Part shown: positions 46,630 through 52,538 of the stretch, one piece after another
How positions within the stretch are numbered: the stretch's first letter is position 1
Layout of the letters: the number at the start of each line of letters is the position of its first letter
Assembly (NCBI GenBank): GCA_944388585.1
Contig: CALXJI010000007.1
Span: 7,276-71,275, forward strand
Length of the DNA stretch: 64,000 nt
Direction of reading: 5' to 3'
Origin: an uncultured Clostridia bacterium
GTDB taxonomy: Bacteria > Bacillota > Clostridia > TANB77 > CAG-465
Translations under genes and position numbers: made by a program
The notes under the pieces: generated by a model
Databases searched by the model: none
What the model was told of the DNA's origin: nothing
What the model saw: the letters and a program-made list of their open reading frames with translations, nothing else

Positions 46630-47748
46630 ATGGCAAAGTATCCAGATTATGATAATAGTATATTATCAGTGATTTCTTCAATTTTAAAGTTTTATGGATA
46701 TGATAATGGGCATAAAACGTTAGAAATTTTGGATAAAAAACTAAAAAAAGGTTATGATAATGTACTTCTTATGCTTTTTGATGGAATGGGATATTATATA
46801 TTAAATAGATATTTAGATAAAGATAAATTTTTAATAAAAAATTTATATGGCCCTATATCATCAGTATGTCCTTCCACAACAGCTTGTGCTATTCCAACTA
46901 TTGAAAGTGGAATGGCCCCTATTGAACATGGGTGGCTTGGATGGTCTATGTATTTTAAAGATTATGATGCAAATATTTGTGTATTAAAAAATACGTATGA
47001 AGATACTGGAAAAAAAATAAAAGAAGAAAATATAGCTAAAAAATATATAGGCTATGAGAATATTTTTGAAAAAATAGAAGACGTAACTAATGGCGCTGTT
47101 AAAGCACATGATATTTCATTATATTCAGATACAAATGAATATGTATATAGCTATAATCAGTTATTAAGAAAAATAATTGAAATTTCTAATAATGGAAGGA
47201 AAAATTTTATTTATGCATATTCTGAGGAACCAGATATAATAATGCATTCTACTGGCGTAGATCATGAATATGTAAAAGAAAATATAAGATTTATAAATAG
47301 TATGATATATGAATTATCTAAAAAATTAGAAAATACATTAATTATTATTACAGCAGATCATGGACTTGTAAATTGTAATGCAAAGTATTTAGATAAATAC
47401 CCAAAATTAGAAAAAATGTTAAAACGTATACCAAGCTTTGAATCCAGAGCAGTTAATTTTTTTGTAAAGGAAGAATATGTTAAAGACTTTAAAACCGAGT
47501 TCGAAAAAGTATTTAAAGATAAATTTCTCTTATTGAGTAGAGAAGAAATTTTAAAAGGAAAATTATTTGGAGAAGGAAGTCAAAATTCACATATAAGAGA
47601 AACTTTAGGGGATTATATGGCTTTTGGAATTTCTGATGTAGCTTTAGAATGGGAAGATAAAAATAAAAAAATTATAGCAAGACACGCTGGACTTACAGAA
47701 GAGGAAATGACAGTTCCTTTAATTATAATAGATACAAAAAATGTATAA
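46630..47748 (+). CDS. alkaline-phosphatase-superfamily protein (type I phosphodiesterase / nucleotide pyrophosphatase-like)
   Basis: Metal-binding motifs LMLFDGMGY and ITADHG; 372 aa. Confidence 0.7.
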   Translation: MAKYPDYDNSILSVISSILKFYGYDNGHKTLEILDKKLKKGYDNVLLMLFDGMGYYILNRYLDKDKFLIKNLYGPISSVCPSTTACAIPTIESGMAPIEHGWLGWSMYFKDYDANICVLKNTYEDTGKKIKEENIAKKYIGYENIFEKIEDVTNGAVKAHDISLYSDTNEYVYSYNQLLRKIIEISNNGRKNFIYAYSEEPDIIMHSTGVDHEYVKENIRFINSMIYELSKKLENTLIIITADHGLVNCNAKYLDKYPKLEKMLKRIPSFESRAVNFFVKEEYVKDFKTEFEKVFKDKFLLLSREEILKGKLFGEGSQNSHIRETLGDYMAFGISDVALEWEDKNKKIIARHAGLTEEEMTVPLIIIDTKNV

Positions 47749-47830
47749 AAAAATCAAAAAAAATATAAAAAAACTTGATTTTTTATAATACATATGTTAT
47801 TATATTAGAGTACTAATTATTAGTACTATT

Positions 47831-47907
<77 letters not shown>

Positions 47908-47921
47908 AAGAAAATGTATTG

Positions 47922-47959
47922 ATATCAAGCTTTTTATAGAGAAAGCTTGATATTTTTTT
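47922..47959 (+). terminator. rho-independent terminator after tRNA-Arg
   Basis: TATCAAGCTT pairs with AAGCTTGATA, followed by TTTTTTT. Confidence 0.7.
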
Positions 47960-48123
47960 GACTTTAAAAACATTACTAATTAATACTATATATTACATAT
48001 GTTTGTATAAAACTTGACAAAAATTTTAATATAATTTTTATATAATATGTCTAAATGTTTCTATATAATATTGAAAAGAATGTTGACATATTAATGATTC
48101 TATGGTAACATATATTTATATGA

Positions 48124-48141
48124 TATAACTTATAAGTTATA
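48124..48141. promoter_or_regulatory. 18-bp perfect palindrome (candidate operator) in the toxin-antitoxin-chaperone module promoter
   Basis: TATAACTTA|TAAGTTATA is a perfect inverted repeat about 20 nt downstream of the TTGACA-17-TAACAT promoter at 48085-48113. Confidence 0.45.
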
Positions 48142-48198
48142 CAAATTTATATGTATAAAGAGAGGTTGTATATTATGAAAAATTAAGGAGAATGGATT

Positions 48199-48630
48199 AT
48201 GAAAGGTATAAATCAGTCATTAATAAATGTATTGATACAAAAAGATGTTTTGATAAAAAGAAGACATATAAAGCAAATTTCTAAATTATTCTTGAATGAA
48301 AATTCTTTGAGAAACTTTATTGAAGAATTTATTAAACAAAAAGAGTATTTTTTAGAAAATCCACAGTATTATATAGATAATAATAAAAAAATAGAGCGCT
48401 TAAAATATATTAAAATAGAAGATCCAATTTACAGTTATAAGTATAGAAAGAGTGGTTCTAGAAAGAATAATAAAAATATTCGCTGCATATTTTTTATATA
48501 TGAAGGTAGAATAATAGTATTAGATATTTTTGAAGAAAATGATGATAATGGCTCTGCATATAAAGATGCTATAAAAAGAGCTGTTTCTGAATATAAAATT
48601 ATAGTAGAAGGTGGTAAAGATGAAGATTAA
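48199..48630 (+). CDS. HigB/Gp49-like (RelE/ParE superfamily) toxin
   Basis: C-terminal IRCIFFIYEGRIIVLDIFEENDDNG...AIKRA matches the Gp49/HigB fold pattern; first gene of the module; AAGGAG RBS. Confidence 0.6.
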   Translation: MKGINQSLINVLIQKDVLIKRRHIKQISKLFLNENSLRNFIEEFIKQKEYFLENPQYYIDNNKKIERLKYIKIEDPIYSYKYRKSGSRKNNKNIRCIFFIYEGRIIVLDIFEENDDNGSAYKDAIKRAVSEYKIIVEGGKDED

Positions 48631-49075
48631 TTTAAAAGATTTTGTAAAACCTACACAAGAAATTGATGAGCAATTATTAGAAAATGTTGATTACAATGAT
48701 ATGCTATTTTGTGTTTCTAAAACATTAGTAGATTATAGAAATCATTTTAATTATACTCAAGAAGATATAGCAAAAGAATTGAATATGTCTCAAGTTATGG
48801 TTTCTAAAATAGAATCAGGAAAAAATAATTTGTCATTAAAAGTATTAGTAAAAATTTGGAATAAATTATCTAGAAAAGATTATAACTTTTCTGCAATATT
48901 ATTAAATAGAATGTTGAAAAAAGCTAAAGAAAACTATGATATAAAGTATAATGTTAATAAAGTTTTTTATACTGTTATAGAAGAGAAAAAGAATGATTAT
49001 GCCAAAAGTGATTTAAAAGAGGATACAAATTGTTATAAAATATATAACTATAAAAAGTTTTCAGAAGCTATATAG
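48611..49075 (+). CDS. XRE-family HTH antitoxin with about 70 aa C-terminal extension (candidate chaperone-addiction region)
   Basis: HTH motif YTQEDIAKELNMSQVMVSKIESGKNNLSLKVL; overlaps the toxin gene by 20 nt; aromatic-rich C-terminal tail. Confidence 0.65.
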   Translation: MVKMKINLKDFVKPTQEIDEQLLENVDYNDMLFCVSKTLVDYRNHFNYTQEDIAKELNMSQVMVSKIESGKNNLSLKVLVKIWNKLSRKDYNFSAILLNRMLKKAKENYDIKYNVNKVFYTVIEEKKNDYAKSDLKEDTNCYKIYNYKKFSEAI

Positions 49076-49090
49076 AATGGGGGGAAATAT

Positions 49091-49525
49091 ATGGAAAATA
49101 ATAGTGTAAAATCTGAATTTGAAATTGGAAAATCTTGTGTTAAAGAATTTAATATAGATATTATTAATAGAAATTTTCCAAATGAAAAAAAATACGATTT
49201 TGAATTGAAGGTAGGTATTTCAGATATACAGGTTAAAGAAGAATATCAATATGCTAATATTTTTTTAGCATGTAATATAATGTTAAAAAACGAAGAAAGA
49301 GAATTTTTAAAAATTTATATAAAATATATGGGAGAATTTAGAGCTTCAGTAAAATTAGAAAAAAATAAATTTTTAGATTATTGTAAATATAATGGTGCTC
49401 CGATAATATCTCAAAACTTAAGAGCATATTTAAAAGCTGTAACAGCTTTATCAGAAATAGAACCTATAGATTTTCCAACAATTAATTTTAATAACGTTTT
49501 TAAAGAAGAAAATAAAGAAAAATAA
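49091..49525 (+). CDS. SecB-like chaperone (third component of the toxin-antitoxin-chaperone module)
   Basis: Hand alignment to E. coli SecB: FEIGK..EFN ~ FQIQR..ISFE; NGAPIISQNLRAYLKAVTA...PIDFPTINFNNVF ~ GAYCPNILFPYARECITS...PQLNLAPVNFDALF; 144 aa. Confidence 0.55.
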   Translation: MENNSVKSEFEIGKSCVKEFNIDIINRNFPNEKKYDFELKVGISDIQVKEEYQYANIFLACNIMLKNEEREFLKIYIKYMGEFRASVKLEKNKFLDYCKYNGAPIISQNLRAYLKAVTALSEIEPIDFPTINFNNVFKEENKEK

Positions 49526-49532
49526 ATAAAAA

Positions 49533-49561
49533 ATCAAGCAAATTAATTGCTTGATTTTTTC
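49533..49561. terminator. bidirectional terminator between the SecB-like gene and the convergent crp-family gene
   Basis: ATCAAGCAA-ATTAA-TTGCTTGAT hairpin followed by TTTTTT. Confidence 0.7.
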
Positions 49562-49594
49562 ATTTAACTAAGTGCAAAATATTAAATTTAAATA

Positions 49595-50236
49595 TTATTT
49601 ATATAACAATGTAATTCTTCTATCTTTAATTTCAATTAATTTTTCTTCTTTTAAATGTTTTAATTCTCTAAACATTGCTGATCTATTAATACCTAAATAA
49701 TCTGCTAAATCTCTAAAAGAAGATTGCAAATATACATAATTAAAACGACTTCTTTTATTTTCTATTTCAAAATATTCTAATAATTTTTCACGTATTTGTT
49801 TTTTTTCTAAGATTTTAACTCTCTCATTAGTTTTTTTATATTTTGTATTTATAATATCAAATAAATTTCGTAAAAACGTATTGTAATAATTATGTTTTAA
49901 ATTATTTGGATTAATTAGTCTCTCATAATCTATTACTAATACTTGAGTATTTTCTTTTGCGATTATCTGACAACTTTCGCTATTTGTCGCAGAAATATTT
50001 GTACCAAATACACTGTCTTTAAAGAGTTCTTCTACAATTATTTCGTTACCATTATATTCTATATTAATTATTTGAGCGTATCCATCTAGTATAATAGCAA
50101 TAATATTTTCATTTTTTATGGTAGGAAGTATTTCTTGATTTTCACTAAATTTATATATATGTACACCTAATAATTCACATAATTTATTTATTTGCAATGT
50201 AGATAAATCTTCGAATGGGTTTGTCATTTTTATCAC
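49595..50236 (-). CDS. Crp/Fnr family transcriptional regulator
   Basis: N-terminal cNMP-binding-like beta-roll; C-terminal HTH (RFNYVYLQSSFRDLADYLGINRSAMFRELKHL). Confidence 0.8.
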   Translation of the reverse strand: MIKMTNPFEDLSTLQINKLCELLGVHIYKFSENQEILPTIKNENIIAIILDGYAQIINIEYNGNEIIVEELFKDSVFGTNISATNSESCQIIAKENTQVLVIDYERLINPNNLKHNYYNTFLRNLFDIINTKYKKTNERVKILEKKQIREKLLEYFEIENKRSRFNYVYLQSSFRDLADYLGINRSAMFRELKHLKEEKLIEIKDRRITLLYK

Positions 50237-50345
50237 CTAAAATAATTTTAACAAAAAACACAAAAAGTTGCAAGTGCAACTTTTTTATTTTTGATATTAT
50301 TGATATAAAATATATATATAGAAAAGTAAATGAGGGGGAGTAAAA

Positions 50346-52538
50346 ATGAAAATTGTTAAAAGAGATGGGCATATAGTAGACTATGATCCAGAAAAGATAA
50401 GAGTAGCTATAGGTAAAGCTAATAATGAAGTAAAAGGAAAAGAAAAAGCTTCTAAAGAAGAGATTGAGGAAATTATAAGATATATAGAAGATTTAAATAA
50501 AAAAAGAATATTAGTTGAAGATATCCAAGATATAATAGAAGAAAAACTAATGGAATTTGATAAATATCAATTAGCTAAAAAATATATTACATATAGATAT
50601 ACTAGGGCATTAGTAAGAAAAGCAAATACTACCGACAAATCTATTAAAGAATTAATAGAAGGGGAAAATGAGTATTGGAATAGTGAAAACTCAAACAAAA
50701 ATGCACAAGTTGTAACTACACAAAGAGATTATTTAGCAGGTATTACAAGCACAGATATAACAAGAAGATTCCTATTACCAGAGGATATAGTTGAAGCTCA
50801 TGATAAGGGAATTATACATTTTCATGATGCAGATTATTTTGCACAAAATGCTCTTCATAATTGTGAATTAATTAATCTTGATGATATGCTACAAAATGGA
50901 ACTGTTATAAACGGTGTAATGATAGAAAAACCTCATAGATTTATTACTGCTGCAACAATTGCAACACAAATAATTCTTGCTGTTACATCTTCTAGTTATG
51001 GTGGAGCTACAGTTTCACTTACACATCTTGCTCCATTTGTAAGATTGAGTTATGAAAAATATTTGAAAAAATATAAAGAGAGAAATTTAAGTGAAGAAGA
51101 ATGTAAAGAATTTGCTATGCAAGATACAAGAAAAGAAGTAGAAGACGGTGTTCAAACATTTAACTATCAAGTAAATTCTATGACAAATACTAATGGTCAA
51201 GCTCCATTTTTATCTGTTTGTATGTATTTAGGTGAGACAGATGAATATAAAGAAGAACTTGCTATGGTAATAGAAGAGTTTTTAAAACAGAGAATACTTG
51301 GGTTTAAAAATGAGAAAGGTGTATATATAACACCAGCATTTCCTAAACTTTTATATATACTTGAAGAGGATAATATTCACGAAGATAGCAAATATTGGTA
51401 TTTGACAAAACTTGCTGCAGAATGTACAGCAAAAAGAATGGTACCAGACTATATTTCAGAGAAAATGATGCTTGAATTAAAGAAAAATGAACTTGGAAAT
51501 GGTGAATGTTATCCATGTATGGGATGTAGATCATTCCTTACACCAGATAGAACTATGAGTTTAGGAAATATTGCTAAAGCTAAAAATTATGTTCAAGGAA
51601 AAGGAAAATATTATGGTAGATTTAATCAAGGTGTTGTAACTATTAATTTACCAGATGTCGCTCTTTCAGCTGATGGAGATATGGATAAATTCTGGAAGAT
51701 TTTTGATGAAAGACTAGAACTATGTCATAGAGCATTACAAATTAGACATAAAAGATTAAGTAATGCTACAAGTGATGTAGCACCAATCTTATGGCAATAT
51801 GGTGCATTAGCAAGACTTGACAAAGGAGAGTCAATACATGAGCTACTGCATCATGGATATTCTACTATTTCACTTGGATATGCAGGACTTTATGAGTGTG
51901 TAAAAGTAATGACTGGGCATTCACATACAGATAATGGAGAAGGTAAAGAATTTGGATTAAAAATAATGCAACATTTAAATGATATGACAGCAAAGTGGAA
52001 AAAAGAAGAGGATATAGATTATTCAGTATATGGATCTCCTATAGAATCAACAACATATAAGTTTGCTAAATGTCTAAAAGAAAGATTTGGAACAATAAAA
52101 GGAATAACAGATAGAGGATATATCACTAATTCATATCATGTTCCAGTATTTGAAGAAATAGATGCTTTCTCTAAATTAAAATTGGAAAGTGAATTTCAAA
52201 GATTAAGTCCTGGCGGAGCAATATCTTATATAGAAACACCAAATTTACAAAACAATTTAGATGCGATTATAGAGGTAATTAAATTTATTTACGATAATAT
52301 AATGTATGCAGAGCTTAATACAAAATCAGATTATTGTCAAAAATGTGGATATACAGGAGAAATATTAATTGATGATAATTTAGAGTGGTTTTGCCCAAAT
52401 TGTGGAAATAGAGACCATAATACATTAAATGTAGCAAGACGTACATGTGGATATATTGGTACTAATTTTTGGAATAAAGGAAGAACACAAGAAATAAAAG
52501 AAAGAGTATTACATATAGATAATAAGGCGGCTGATTAA
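50346..52538 (+). CDS. nrdD: anaerobic ribonucleoside-triphosphate reductase (class III, glycyl radical)
   Basis: N-terminal ATP-cone (VKRDGHIVDYDPEKI); C-terminal Zn ribbon CQKCGY...CPNCG; glycyl-radical motif RTCGYIG; 730 aa. Confidence 0.95.
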   Translation: MKIVKRDGHIVDYDPEKIRVAIGKANNEVKGKEKASKEEIEEIIRYIEDLNKKRILVEDIQDIIEEKLMEFDKYQLAKKYITYRYTRALVRKANTTDKSIKELIEGENEYWNSENSNKNAQVVTTQRDYLAGITSTDITRRFLLPEDIVEAHDKGIIHFHDADYFAQNALHNCELINLDDMLQNGTVINGVMIEKPHRFITAATIATQIILAVTSSSYGGATVSLTHLAPFVRLSYEKYLKKYKERNLSEEECKEFAMQDTRKEVEDGVQTFNYQVNSMTNTNGQAPFLSVCMYLGETDEYKEELAMVIEEFLKQRILGFKNEKGVYITPAFPKLLYILEEDNIHEDSKYWYLTKLAAECTAKRMVPDYISEKMMLELKKNELGNGECYPCMGCRSFLTPDRTMSLGNIAKAKNYVQGKGKYYGRFNQGVVTINLPDVALSADGDMDKFWKIFDERLELCHRALQIRHKRLSNATSDVAPILWQYGALARLDKGESIHELLHHGYSTISLGYAGLYECVKVMTGHSHTDNGEGKEFGLKIMQHLNDMTAKWKKEEDIDYSVYGSPIESTTYKFAKCLKERFGTIKGITDRGYITNSYHVPVFEEIDAFSKLKLESEFQRLSPGGAISYIETPNLQNNLDAIIEVIKFIYDNIMYAELNTKSDYCQKCGYTGEILIDDNLEWFCPNCGNRDHNTLNVARRTCGYIGTNFWNKGRTQEIKERVLHIDNKAAD

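Follow-up and report, generated by a model that had tools for sequence, protein, structure and literature searches.

A divergent three-gene operon of uncultured Clostridia that probably encodes a HigBA-type toxin–antitoxin–chaperone module

In a 64-kb stretch of DNA from an uncultured Clostridia bacterium (hereafter the window, meaning the whole stretch of 64,000 nucleotides analysed), we find a self-contained operon at positions 48083-49560 that comprises a putative promoter, a palindrome, three open reading frames (ORFs) and a terminator hairpin. Its architecture and all three of its folds or domains match those of the HigB1-HigA1-Rv1957 system of M. tuberculosis, and we consider it likely that the module is a type II toxin–antitoxin–chaperone (TAC) operon of the HigBA-SecB type. 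TACs are a known class of modules for growth arrest and phage defence; the operon is a very divergent and previously unnamed member and represents no new kind of system or principle. An original prediction had read positions 48085-49561, which correspond to promoter through terminator, as a TAC resembling HigBA-Rv1957. This reading held for the gene order, the predicted SecB fold and the helix-turn-helix (HTH) protein with its tail, and the three genes travel together as a cassette with a conserved candidate operator. The features of the module are:

48083-48111, + strand: putative sigma70-like promoter (TTGACA, 17-nt spacer, TAACAT, with TG before the -10)
48124-48141, no strand: 18-bp perfect palindrome TATAACTTATAAGTTATA, just after the -10 (16-bp core at 48125-48140)
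48199-48630, + strand: ORF1, 143 aa, divergent Gp49/HigB-like (RelE/ParE-fold) putative toxin
48620-49075, + strand: ORF2, 151 aa from ATG, XRE-HTH putative antitoxin
49091-49525, + strand: ORF3, 144 aa, predicted SecB-fold chaperone of the toxin–antitoxin (TA)-associated (SecB^TA) type
49528-49560, bidirectional: intrinsic terminator hairpin flanked by an A-run and a T-run, from a terminator scan

The three ORFs are packed on the + strand as had been described, at 143, 154 (counted from a GTG codon) and 144 aa, with 15 nt between ORF2 and ORF3, and no frame of at least 40 aa is present on the opposite strand within the module. A Shine-Dalgarno sequence precedes each gene (AAGGAG at 48184-48189 for ORF1, GAAGGTGG at 48607-48614 for ORF2 and GGGGGG for ORF3). 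The GTG at 48611, from which ORF2 would be 154 aa long, falls within GAAGGTGG, and the 151-aa form starting at ATG 48620, which is present on 171 contigs, is the one used in all database copies and all gene calls. We therefore rejected the GTG start. ATG 48620 is almost certainly the real start of ORF2, which makes the protein 151 aa long and reduces its overlap with ORF1 from the 20 nt first proposed to 11 nt.

Conservation of the triplet as a unit provides the first line of evidence. From contigs encoding ORF1- or ORF3-family proteins, together with genome and metagenome scans, we collected 12 related loci from at least seven lineages. The order of toxin, HTH antitoxin and SecB-like gene is kept in all 12 (the short contig L012 ends before the chaperone position), and in 11 of them an ORF3 homologue directly follows the antitoxin gene, with a gap of 10-22 nt where gene calls exist. 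The neighbours vary by locus and include ABC transporters, a radical-SAM (S-adenosylmethionine) gene, a YitT-family membrane protein, RNase III and CTP synthase, and similarity to the window at the DNA level is limited to 48118-49534, which is the cassette itself. We computed the ratio of non-synonymous to synonymous substitution rates (dN/dS) between the window and L004, a locus in a Clostridia metagenome-assembled genome (MAG). The ratio was 0.31 for ORF1 (dS 0.375), 0.16 for ORF2 (dS 0.423) and 0.12 for ORF3 (dS 0.364), and 0.01 for the neighbouring gene nrdD (dS 0.371). All three genes are under purifying selection and are co-inherited with their flanks. Since the triplet recurs in 12 independent loci and is under purifying selection, its arrangement is not due to chance. 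The same data bear on whether the ORFs might be no more than random reading frames in AT-rich sequence or artefacts of annotation. At a G+C content of ~21% long spurious ORFs are less likely, but low-complexity matches are common, as illustrated by those to eL22 and CD2 described below. Protein identities of 31-100% over the 12 loci and dN/dS values well below 1 refute this explanation, and we give it practically no credence; both AlphaFold2 (AF2) models described below are confident, and each gene has its Shine-Dalgarno sequence.

The exact protein sequences of the module are each found on ~90-170 metagenomic contigs, and none of the database copies listed for the three proteins has a name. 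This is consistent with the earlier remark that TACs are rarely annotated in Clostridia. Their horizontal spread, by contrast, is already well described: TAC systems are patchily distributed and horizontally transferred across phyla, and SecB-like chaperones accompany several TA families (PMC3581621, PMC4257090).

The palindrome TATAACTTATAAGTTATA occurs only once in the window. Its exact 16-mer is found upstream of the toxin gene in five of the related loci (L001-L005), and the core AACTTATAAGTT in 12 out of 12, exactly once upstream of each toxin gene and always directly 3' of a TTGACA-N17-TAnAAT promoter. The core is retained in L009, though the proteins of this locus are only 31-41% identical to those of the window and the rest of its upstream DNA is unalignable. 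On comparative grounds, this pattern speaks strongly for an operator that the conserved HTH recognises. The palindrome is probably the operator of the HTH antitoxin, to which ORF2 would bind in autorepression, as fits an autoregulated type II TA operon.

The predicted promoter at 48083-48111 is the best-scoring promoter-like site in the region (10/12 positions, extended -10) and is also kept in L004. The terminator scan of the region returned two sites against 0.1 expected. The hairpin at 49528-49560 was reported on the - strand and its use on the + strand was read from the T-run at 49555-49560; it terminates the operon and does the same for the convergent gene of the Crp family (49595-50236, - strand). 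The three co-oriented genes have one promoter-like site and one terminator. About 70 bp upstream of the main promoter, at 48014-48045, a second TTGACA box is accompanied by A/T-rich -10-like sequences. This box is partly kept in L004 and absent in more distant loci, and may represent either another promoter or a piece of the sequence that flanks the tRNA. In addition, a mini-ORF of three codons (ATG AAA AAT TAA, 48175-48186) overlaps the Shine-Dalgarno region of ORF1. Its counterpart in L004 carries one substitution (ATG TAA AAT TAA), and the mini-ORF is probably fortuitous in AT-rich DNA.

ORF3 had originally been aligned by eye with E. coli SecB, a likeness that is borne out by several comparisons. 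The match to the Pfam SecB model (PF02556) is sub-threshold (E 1.5e-3, 18.9 bits against a cut-off of 26) and extends over the full length, from residues 6-143 on model positions 4-140 of 141. Using a verified sequence of E. coli SecB, hhalign placed residues 105-140 of ORF3 in register with SecB 105-140, a block in which R111, N132, F133 and F137 are common to both. The AF2 model of ORF3, built from a 13-sequence alignment, has a predicted local distance difference test score (pLDDT) of 88.6 and a predicted template-modelling score (pTM) of 0.79, and combines four long strands with one long helix and a short helix at the C-terminus. When this model was compared to the PDB with Foldseek, the top matches were all SecB proteins with a probability of 1.00, including E. 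coli SecB (1qyn, template-modelling (TM) score 0.74-0.80), H. influenzae SecB (1fx3 and 1ozb, probability 1.00) and M. tuberculosis Rv1957 in complex with a peptide of the chaperone addiction (ChAD) region (5mtw, TM 0.64-0.71). The model thus predicts a SecB fold for ORF3, in agreement with the original assignment. Among profile collections, ORF3 matches the PADLOC model PD-T4-9_C at 7.3e-11 and phrog_21664 at 3.4e-7; the former models CmdC, which is the SecB-like chaperone in the defence system CmdTAC (PMC9519451).

Like the housekeeping SecB proteins of E. coli and H. influenzae, ORF3 combines the predicted fold with the C-terminal block R...N-F-x3-F. It differs from them in that identity is only 12-16%, in its position inside a TA operon and in having no evident link to protein export. 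It also scores below the cut-offs of PF02556, TIGR00809 (17.4 bits against 102.8) and NF004392 (14.2 against 143), and, despite the shared fold, it is not an orthologue of housekeeping SecB. By analogy ORF3 would be tetrameric. These comparisons also bear on whether the locus is an ordinary two-gene HigBA that happens to lie beside a general-purpose (solitary) SecB-type chaperone, with no functional coupling. Solitary SecB homologues do occur sporadically in Firmicutes (PMC3581621, PMC4257090), and by fold ORF3 matches E. coli SecB marginally better than it does Rv1957. Against this, ORF3 homologues are never found apart from the antitoxin gene across unrelated neighbourhoods (12 loci, with L012 ending early), and the three genes form one conserved cassette with a single promoter and candidate operator. 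Moreover, ORF3 fails the SecB equivalog and Pfam cut-offs yet matches the TAC chaperone model CmdC, and the antitoxin bears a tail, which a classical HigA would not require. We regard an uncoupled chaperone as very improbable and favour its being part of a TAC.

ORF2 matches Pfam HTH_3 (1.9e-11) at residues 38-79 in the 151-aa numbering, corresponding to approximately nt 48731-48856, and is weakly matched by NCBIfam models of the antitoxin families HipB, HigA and MqsA. In alignments of the family, a conserved N-terminal segment is followed by the HTH, whose recognition region SQVMISKIESGK is nearly invariant, and then by the block NFx4Lx2MLKKxKENYDIKYN, conserved at approximately residues 89-111. 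The sequence after this block is variable and rich in Lys and Tyr, with a few aromatic columns conserved. All family members have the tail that extends beyond the HTH domain; in ORF2 it measures ~55 aa (residues 96-151, nt 48905-49072), shorter than the ~70 aa first estimated. Family members end in A-I, V-I or A-A in 10 out of 11 cases (L010 ends in Y-A). The ChAD of HigA1 ends in V-A and CmdA in A-A, both of which are ClpXP degrons, and ChAD recognition by SecB^TA proceeds via aromatic residues (bioRxiv 10.1101/2024.02.24.581848; PMC5105189). The resemblance of the small aliphatic C-terminal dipeptide of ORF2 to these degron ends is suggestive. By analogy, the tail is most likely a ChAD candidate that would be both chaperone-bound and destabilising.

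For ORF1, the AF2 model (pLDDT 87.1, pTM 0.82) has the N-terminal helices and antiparallel sheet of the RelE/ParE fold and the long C-terminal helix of its Gp49 subgroup. Its best structural match is HigB1, and the ranked Foldseek matches agree at probabilities of 0.95-0.97. The originally noted resemblance to RelE/Gp49/HigB is therefore real at the level of the fold. Support at the sequence level comes from a homologue, P0016, which is 47% identical to ORF1 and is found by the ORF1-family profile at E 2.9e-25. This protein matches Pfam Gp49 (PF05973) with 27.9 bits, above the cut-off of 23.9, over nearly the whole model; the homologue in L001 reaches 14.8 bits against the same cut-off and the window ORF1 has no match. 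Given the Gp49 match of P0016 and the fold search, ORF1 is a divergent Gp49-like member of the RelE/ParE superfamily, with ~35-45 extra N-terminal residues (helices) outside the Gp49 domain. Matches of ORF1 to ribosomal eL22 (E 0.008-0.5), G-alpha and DCP1 were set aside as compositional noise in low-complexity Lys/Glu-rich sequence, as was a match of P0016 to human CD2 (E 2e-4).

The ORF1 family is exceedingly rare. A word-indexed search found three clusters among 5.8 billion proteins, and a full HMMER scan found nine proteins at E <= 0.001 among 1.84 billion cluster representatives. We excluded one of the nine as unrelated (P0022, a 403-aa repeat protein matched at residues 18-70 only), leaving at most eight representatives, and a metagenome scan for further toxin relatives gave only two loci. 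The clade is among the rarest families we have seen.

Several observations weigh against the assignment of the module to the HigBA-type TACs or against parts of it. ORF1 has no significant match of its own in Pfam, NCBIfam, PADLOC, PHROGs or PDB sequences, and its Foldseek E-values (0.07-0.1) are not significant. The hhalign alignment of ORF1 to HigB1 is weak (E 0.019, probability 2.4%), if consistent with predicted secondary structure; the HigB1 query was checked and equals PDB 7awk except for the K95A mutation of that entry. In this weak register three HigB1 residues are replaced, K95 by E113, Q98 by D116 and K99 by N117, and the beta4-alpha3 loop is acidic in ORF1 (E113, D115, D116), not basic as in HigB1. 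For ORF3, the family sequence profile run against PDB sequences did not reach SecB, so the relation must be remote; the kinesin and Cmr5 proteins that topped this search were rejected as noise. The antitoxin tail had been described as aromatic-rich, and at 16.1% F+W+Y compared to 10.3% in the proteins of the AT-rich window the enrichment is only modest, since 15% of same-length windows of this proteome reach that value. We rejected bulk aromatic content as a statistical signal; the notable feature of the tail is its set of conserved aromatic positions. Finally, no copy was found among INPHARED phages (tblastn with ORF1 and ORF3), PLSDB plasmids (tblastn with ORF3) or IMG/VR (two scans), and support for a defence-island or prophage context is correspondingly weak.

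The replaced residues are of particular interest as the catalytic constellation of HigB1 consists of K58, R68, N73, R77, F93, K95 and K99, with N73, R77 and F93 at the catalytic site; K95A is non-toxic and K99A also inhibits toxicity (PMC9098466). In the same weak register HigB1 N73, R77 and F93 fall on ORF1 N91, R95 and F111, and R83 of ORF1, at the end of beta2 (K in other members), was placed by eye at the position of HigB1 R68. R95 and F111 are invariant across the ORF1 family, F-x-E is kept in seven out of eight aligned members (P0016 has F-E-H), and E66, C96 and Y121, also in the predicted active-site region, are conserved as well. Because of the conservation of F-x-E, E66, C96 and Y121, the active-site loop appears to be re-wired rather than decayed.

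Two kinds of disrupted toxin allele were found. In a lineage represented by several independent assemblies (L002, L003, L005 and L012), codon 82 of the toxin gene is TAA inside an A10 run (5128-5130 in L002), with the remainder in frame. In a related allele, P0019, this A-run is instead the site of a frameshift. In both cases the genes for antitoxin and chaperone have remained intact. Toxin-less 'AC' systems are known (Sala et al., PMC3581621), and the disrupted alleles match such derivatives and would be expected if ORF1 were harmful, providing indirect evidence for a toxin. The lesions at the A10 run could mean either that the locus is simply decaying to an 'AC' system or that the homopolymer switches the toxin on and off.

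A decayed toxin, that is, a RelE fold without nuclease activity in a locus that functions mainly as an autoregulated HTH regulator plus chaperone, or in which ORF1 acts by binding, has to be weighed against these data. In its favour, the HigB1 K95 and K99 equivalents are E113 and N117, and the M. tuberculosis proteins HigB2 and HigB3, from which several of these residues are missing, are reported not to be toxic (PMC9098466). In addition, ORF1 evolves faster than its partners (0.31 vs 0.16 and 0.12), and toxin-disrupted alleles persist beside intact antitoxin and chaperone genes. But ORF1 is still under purifying selection, E66, R95, C96, F111 and Y121 are invariant throughout the family in the predicted active-site region, and the retention of F-x-E in all but one aligned member points to a conserved role rather than decay. 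Catalytic sites are in any case notoriously poorly conserved within the RelE superfamily (PMC9098466), and independent inactivating lesions are easier to explain if the intact protein is harmful. We consider a decayed toxin improbable and retain ORF1 as the putative toxin of a TAC. A bolder proposal, which we consider rather unlikely, is that the ORF1 clade forms a TAC-only Gp49-like lineage that may differ from known ribosome-dependent HigB/RelE toxins in catalytic mechanism, codon specificity or even target, with the module perhaps acting as an abortive-infection sensor in gut-type Clostridia whose chaperone is titrated by a phage structural protein. The basis of this proposal is the acidic loop in place of the essential Lys95 and Lys99 of HigB1, together with the clade-specific invariant residues Cys96 and Tyr121.

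The closest relative of the module is the M. tuberculosis system, in which HigB1 (Rv1955), HigA1 (Rv1956) and SecB^TA (Rv1957) are encoded in the same order. ORF1 shares with HigB1 the Gp49-like RelE fold and the long C-terminal helix, ORF2 shares with HigA1 the XRE-HTH and a C-terminal extension ending in an aliphatic dipeptide, and ORF3 shares with Rv1957 (5mtw) the predicted SecB fold. Sequence identity is only ~12-18%, and ORF1 has the N-terminal extension not present in HigB1. The ORF2 tail has Tyr and Phe and no Trp, in contrast to W108, Y114 and W137 in the ChAD of HigA1 (PMC5105189), and the host is here a low-GC monoderm anaerobe. The main departure, in the hhalign register, is E113, D116 and N117 in place of HigB1 K95, Q98 and K99.

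The analysis shows the gene structure, the predicted folds of ORF1 and ORF3, the HTH domain, the joint inheritance of the triplet and its palindrome, and purifying selection on each gene. Toxicity, RNase chemistry, operator binding, chaperone addiction, a trigger and a role in phage defence are what we infer for the module. In analogy with M. tuberculosis HigB1, ORF1 would most likely cleave mRNA on the ribosome and stop translation. ORF2 would neutralise ORF1 and, most likely as a dimer on the 18-bp palindrome, repress the operon. Its ~55-aa tail is most likely the ChAD region, rendering the antitoxin aggregation-prone or protease-sensitive, and ORF3 would bind this tail and thereby keep the antitoxin soluble, protected and functional. 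If the chaperone were titrated away, the antitoxin would fail and the toxin would arrest growth or abort infection. The competing client may be a phage structural protein or, alternatively, a backlog of unfolded proteins. This best-supported model is the mechanism established for TACs, in which, in E. coli, tail or capsid proteins of phages compete for the chaperone (PMC5105189, PMC6377645, PMC9519451, bioRxiv 10.1101/2024.02.24.581848).

Similar components are found in HigBAC of E. coli NT1F31 (bioRxiv 10.1101/2024.02.24.581848), which has a HigB-type toxin, a HigA antitoxin with a ChAD and a SecB-like chaperone. Its proposed trigger, a phage protein that competes with aromatic ChAD motifs for the chaperone, is by analogy the most likely model here. 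The ChAD of E. coli HigBAC is 96 aa long with four aromatic motifs ~30 aa apart, compared to a tail of ~55 aa in ORF2, and E. coli HigBAC is prophage-borne, whereas the present module is chromosomal and lies beside a tRNA integration site. CmdTAC/PD-T4-9 (PMC9519451, PMC11618068) has the same three-gene arrangement and, as noted above, a chaperone model that ORF3 matches. CmdT is an mRNA ADP-ribosyltransferase, in contrast to the RelE fold of ORF1, and neither ORF1 nor ORF2 matches the PADLOC PD-T4-9 toxin and antitoxin models. We rejected membership in CmdTAC because the toxin is not an ADP-ribosyltransferase and only the chaperone model matches. The pairs gp49-gp48 of phage N15, HigBA of S. 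pneumoniae and HigBA2 of V. cholerae have no third gene and no antitoxin tail; unlike these chaperone-less pairs, the ORF1 clade has a SecB-like gene at every locus recovered, save the truncated contig L012.

With this module a confident functional annotation can be given to three proteins that are nameless in every listed database copy, and the HigBA-type TAC class extends to a very divergent Clostridia lineage. The module is soundly annotated and attractive for experiments, but would not surprise a specialist. Only the rare toxin clade, restricted to TACs and with an acidic putative catalytic loop, is out of the ordinary. A ~1.4-kb cassette with a perfectly conserved palindrome, natural toxin-null alleles and a loop unlike that of HigB1 constitutes a clean experimental system, in which chaperone addiction, the sensing of phages through a chaperone and the plasticity of RelE-family active sites can be studied in an anaerobic Gram-positive host.

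The genomic context of the module was examined on both sides. The host is a low-GC organism of the Clostridia type. Titles of related MAGs read 'uncultured Clostridia bacterium' and 'uncultured Clostridium sp.', and the module has a G+C content of ~21% compared to 25-30% in its flanks. Directly upstream, outside the module, lies the following feature, identified by ARAGORN and Rfam:

47831-47907, + strand: tRNA-Arg(TCT)

This tRNA gene has its own terminator-like hairpin, and Rfam gave no RNA element besides it over 47000-50500. On the 3' side of the module terminator are the convergent Crp/Fnr-type regulator gene (49595-50236, - strand) and nrdD. The location of the cassette, between tRNA-Arg and the crp/nrdD genes, is fixed in this species. 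The tRNA gene serves as a hot spot of integration. L004 resembles the window only from 47863 onwards and thus has just the 3' 45 nt of the tRNA (L004:4798-4842), and foreign DNA lies upstream that encodes a glucosaminidase-3xLysM lysin (622-1578) and a Panacea-domain antitoxin. Other strains of the same species have an Amidase_2/SPOR lysin (L015) or an M78 peptidase (L013) upstream of the module, and the window itself has an empty site at the tRNA. The TAC is a resident gene set that abuts a prophage/island attachment site and is not cargo of those elements. This context is compatible with a role in defence, and is no proof of one.

The foreign DNA of L004 also contains, at L004:1613-2909, a gene for a 285-aa protein without a Pfam match that overlaps one for a 151-aa SocA/Panacea protein (PF13274, E 6.7e-12); the two could constitute a second, PanAT-like TA pair beside the TAC. 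A 1.28-kb insertion at L004:6445-7726, between the TAC terminator and the crp-like gene, carries ORFs of 88 aa (- strand), 65 aa and 136 aa, of which the 88-aa and 136-aa ORFs have no Pfam match. As the insertion is lacking in the window, there is a variable spot downstream of the TAC too. Upstream of the tRNA in the window, at 46630-47748, a gene encodes a protein of the phosphodiesterase/alkaline-phosphatase superfamily that matches Pfam PglZ with 30.0 bits (cut-off 25). PglZ is a domain associated with BREX and DISARM. The gene adjoins an ABC-F ATPase gene and is kept in all strains, which suggests that it is probably a housekeeping gene.

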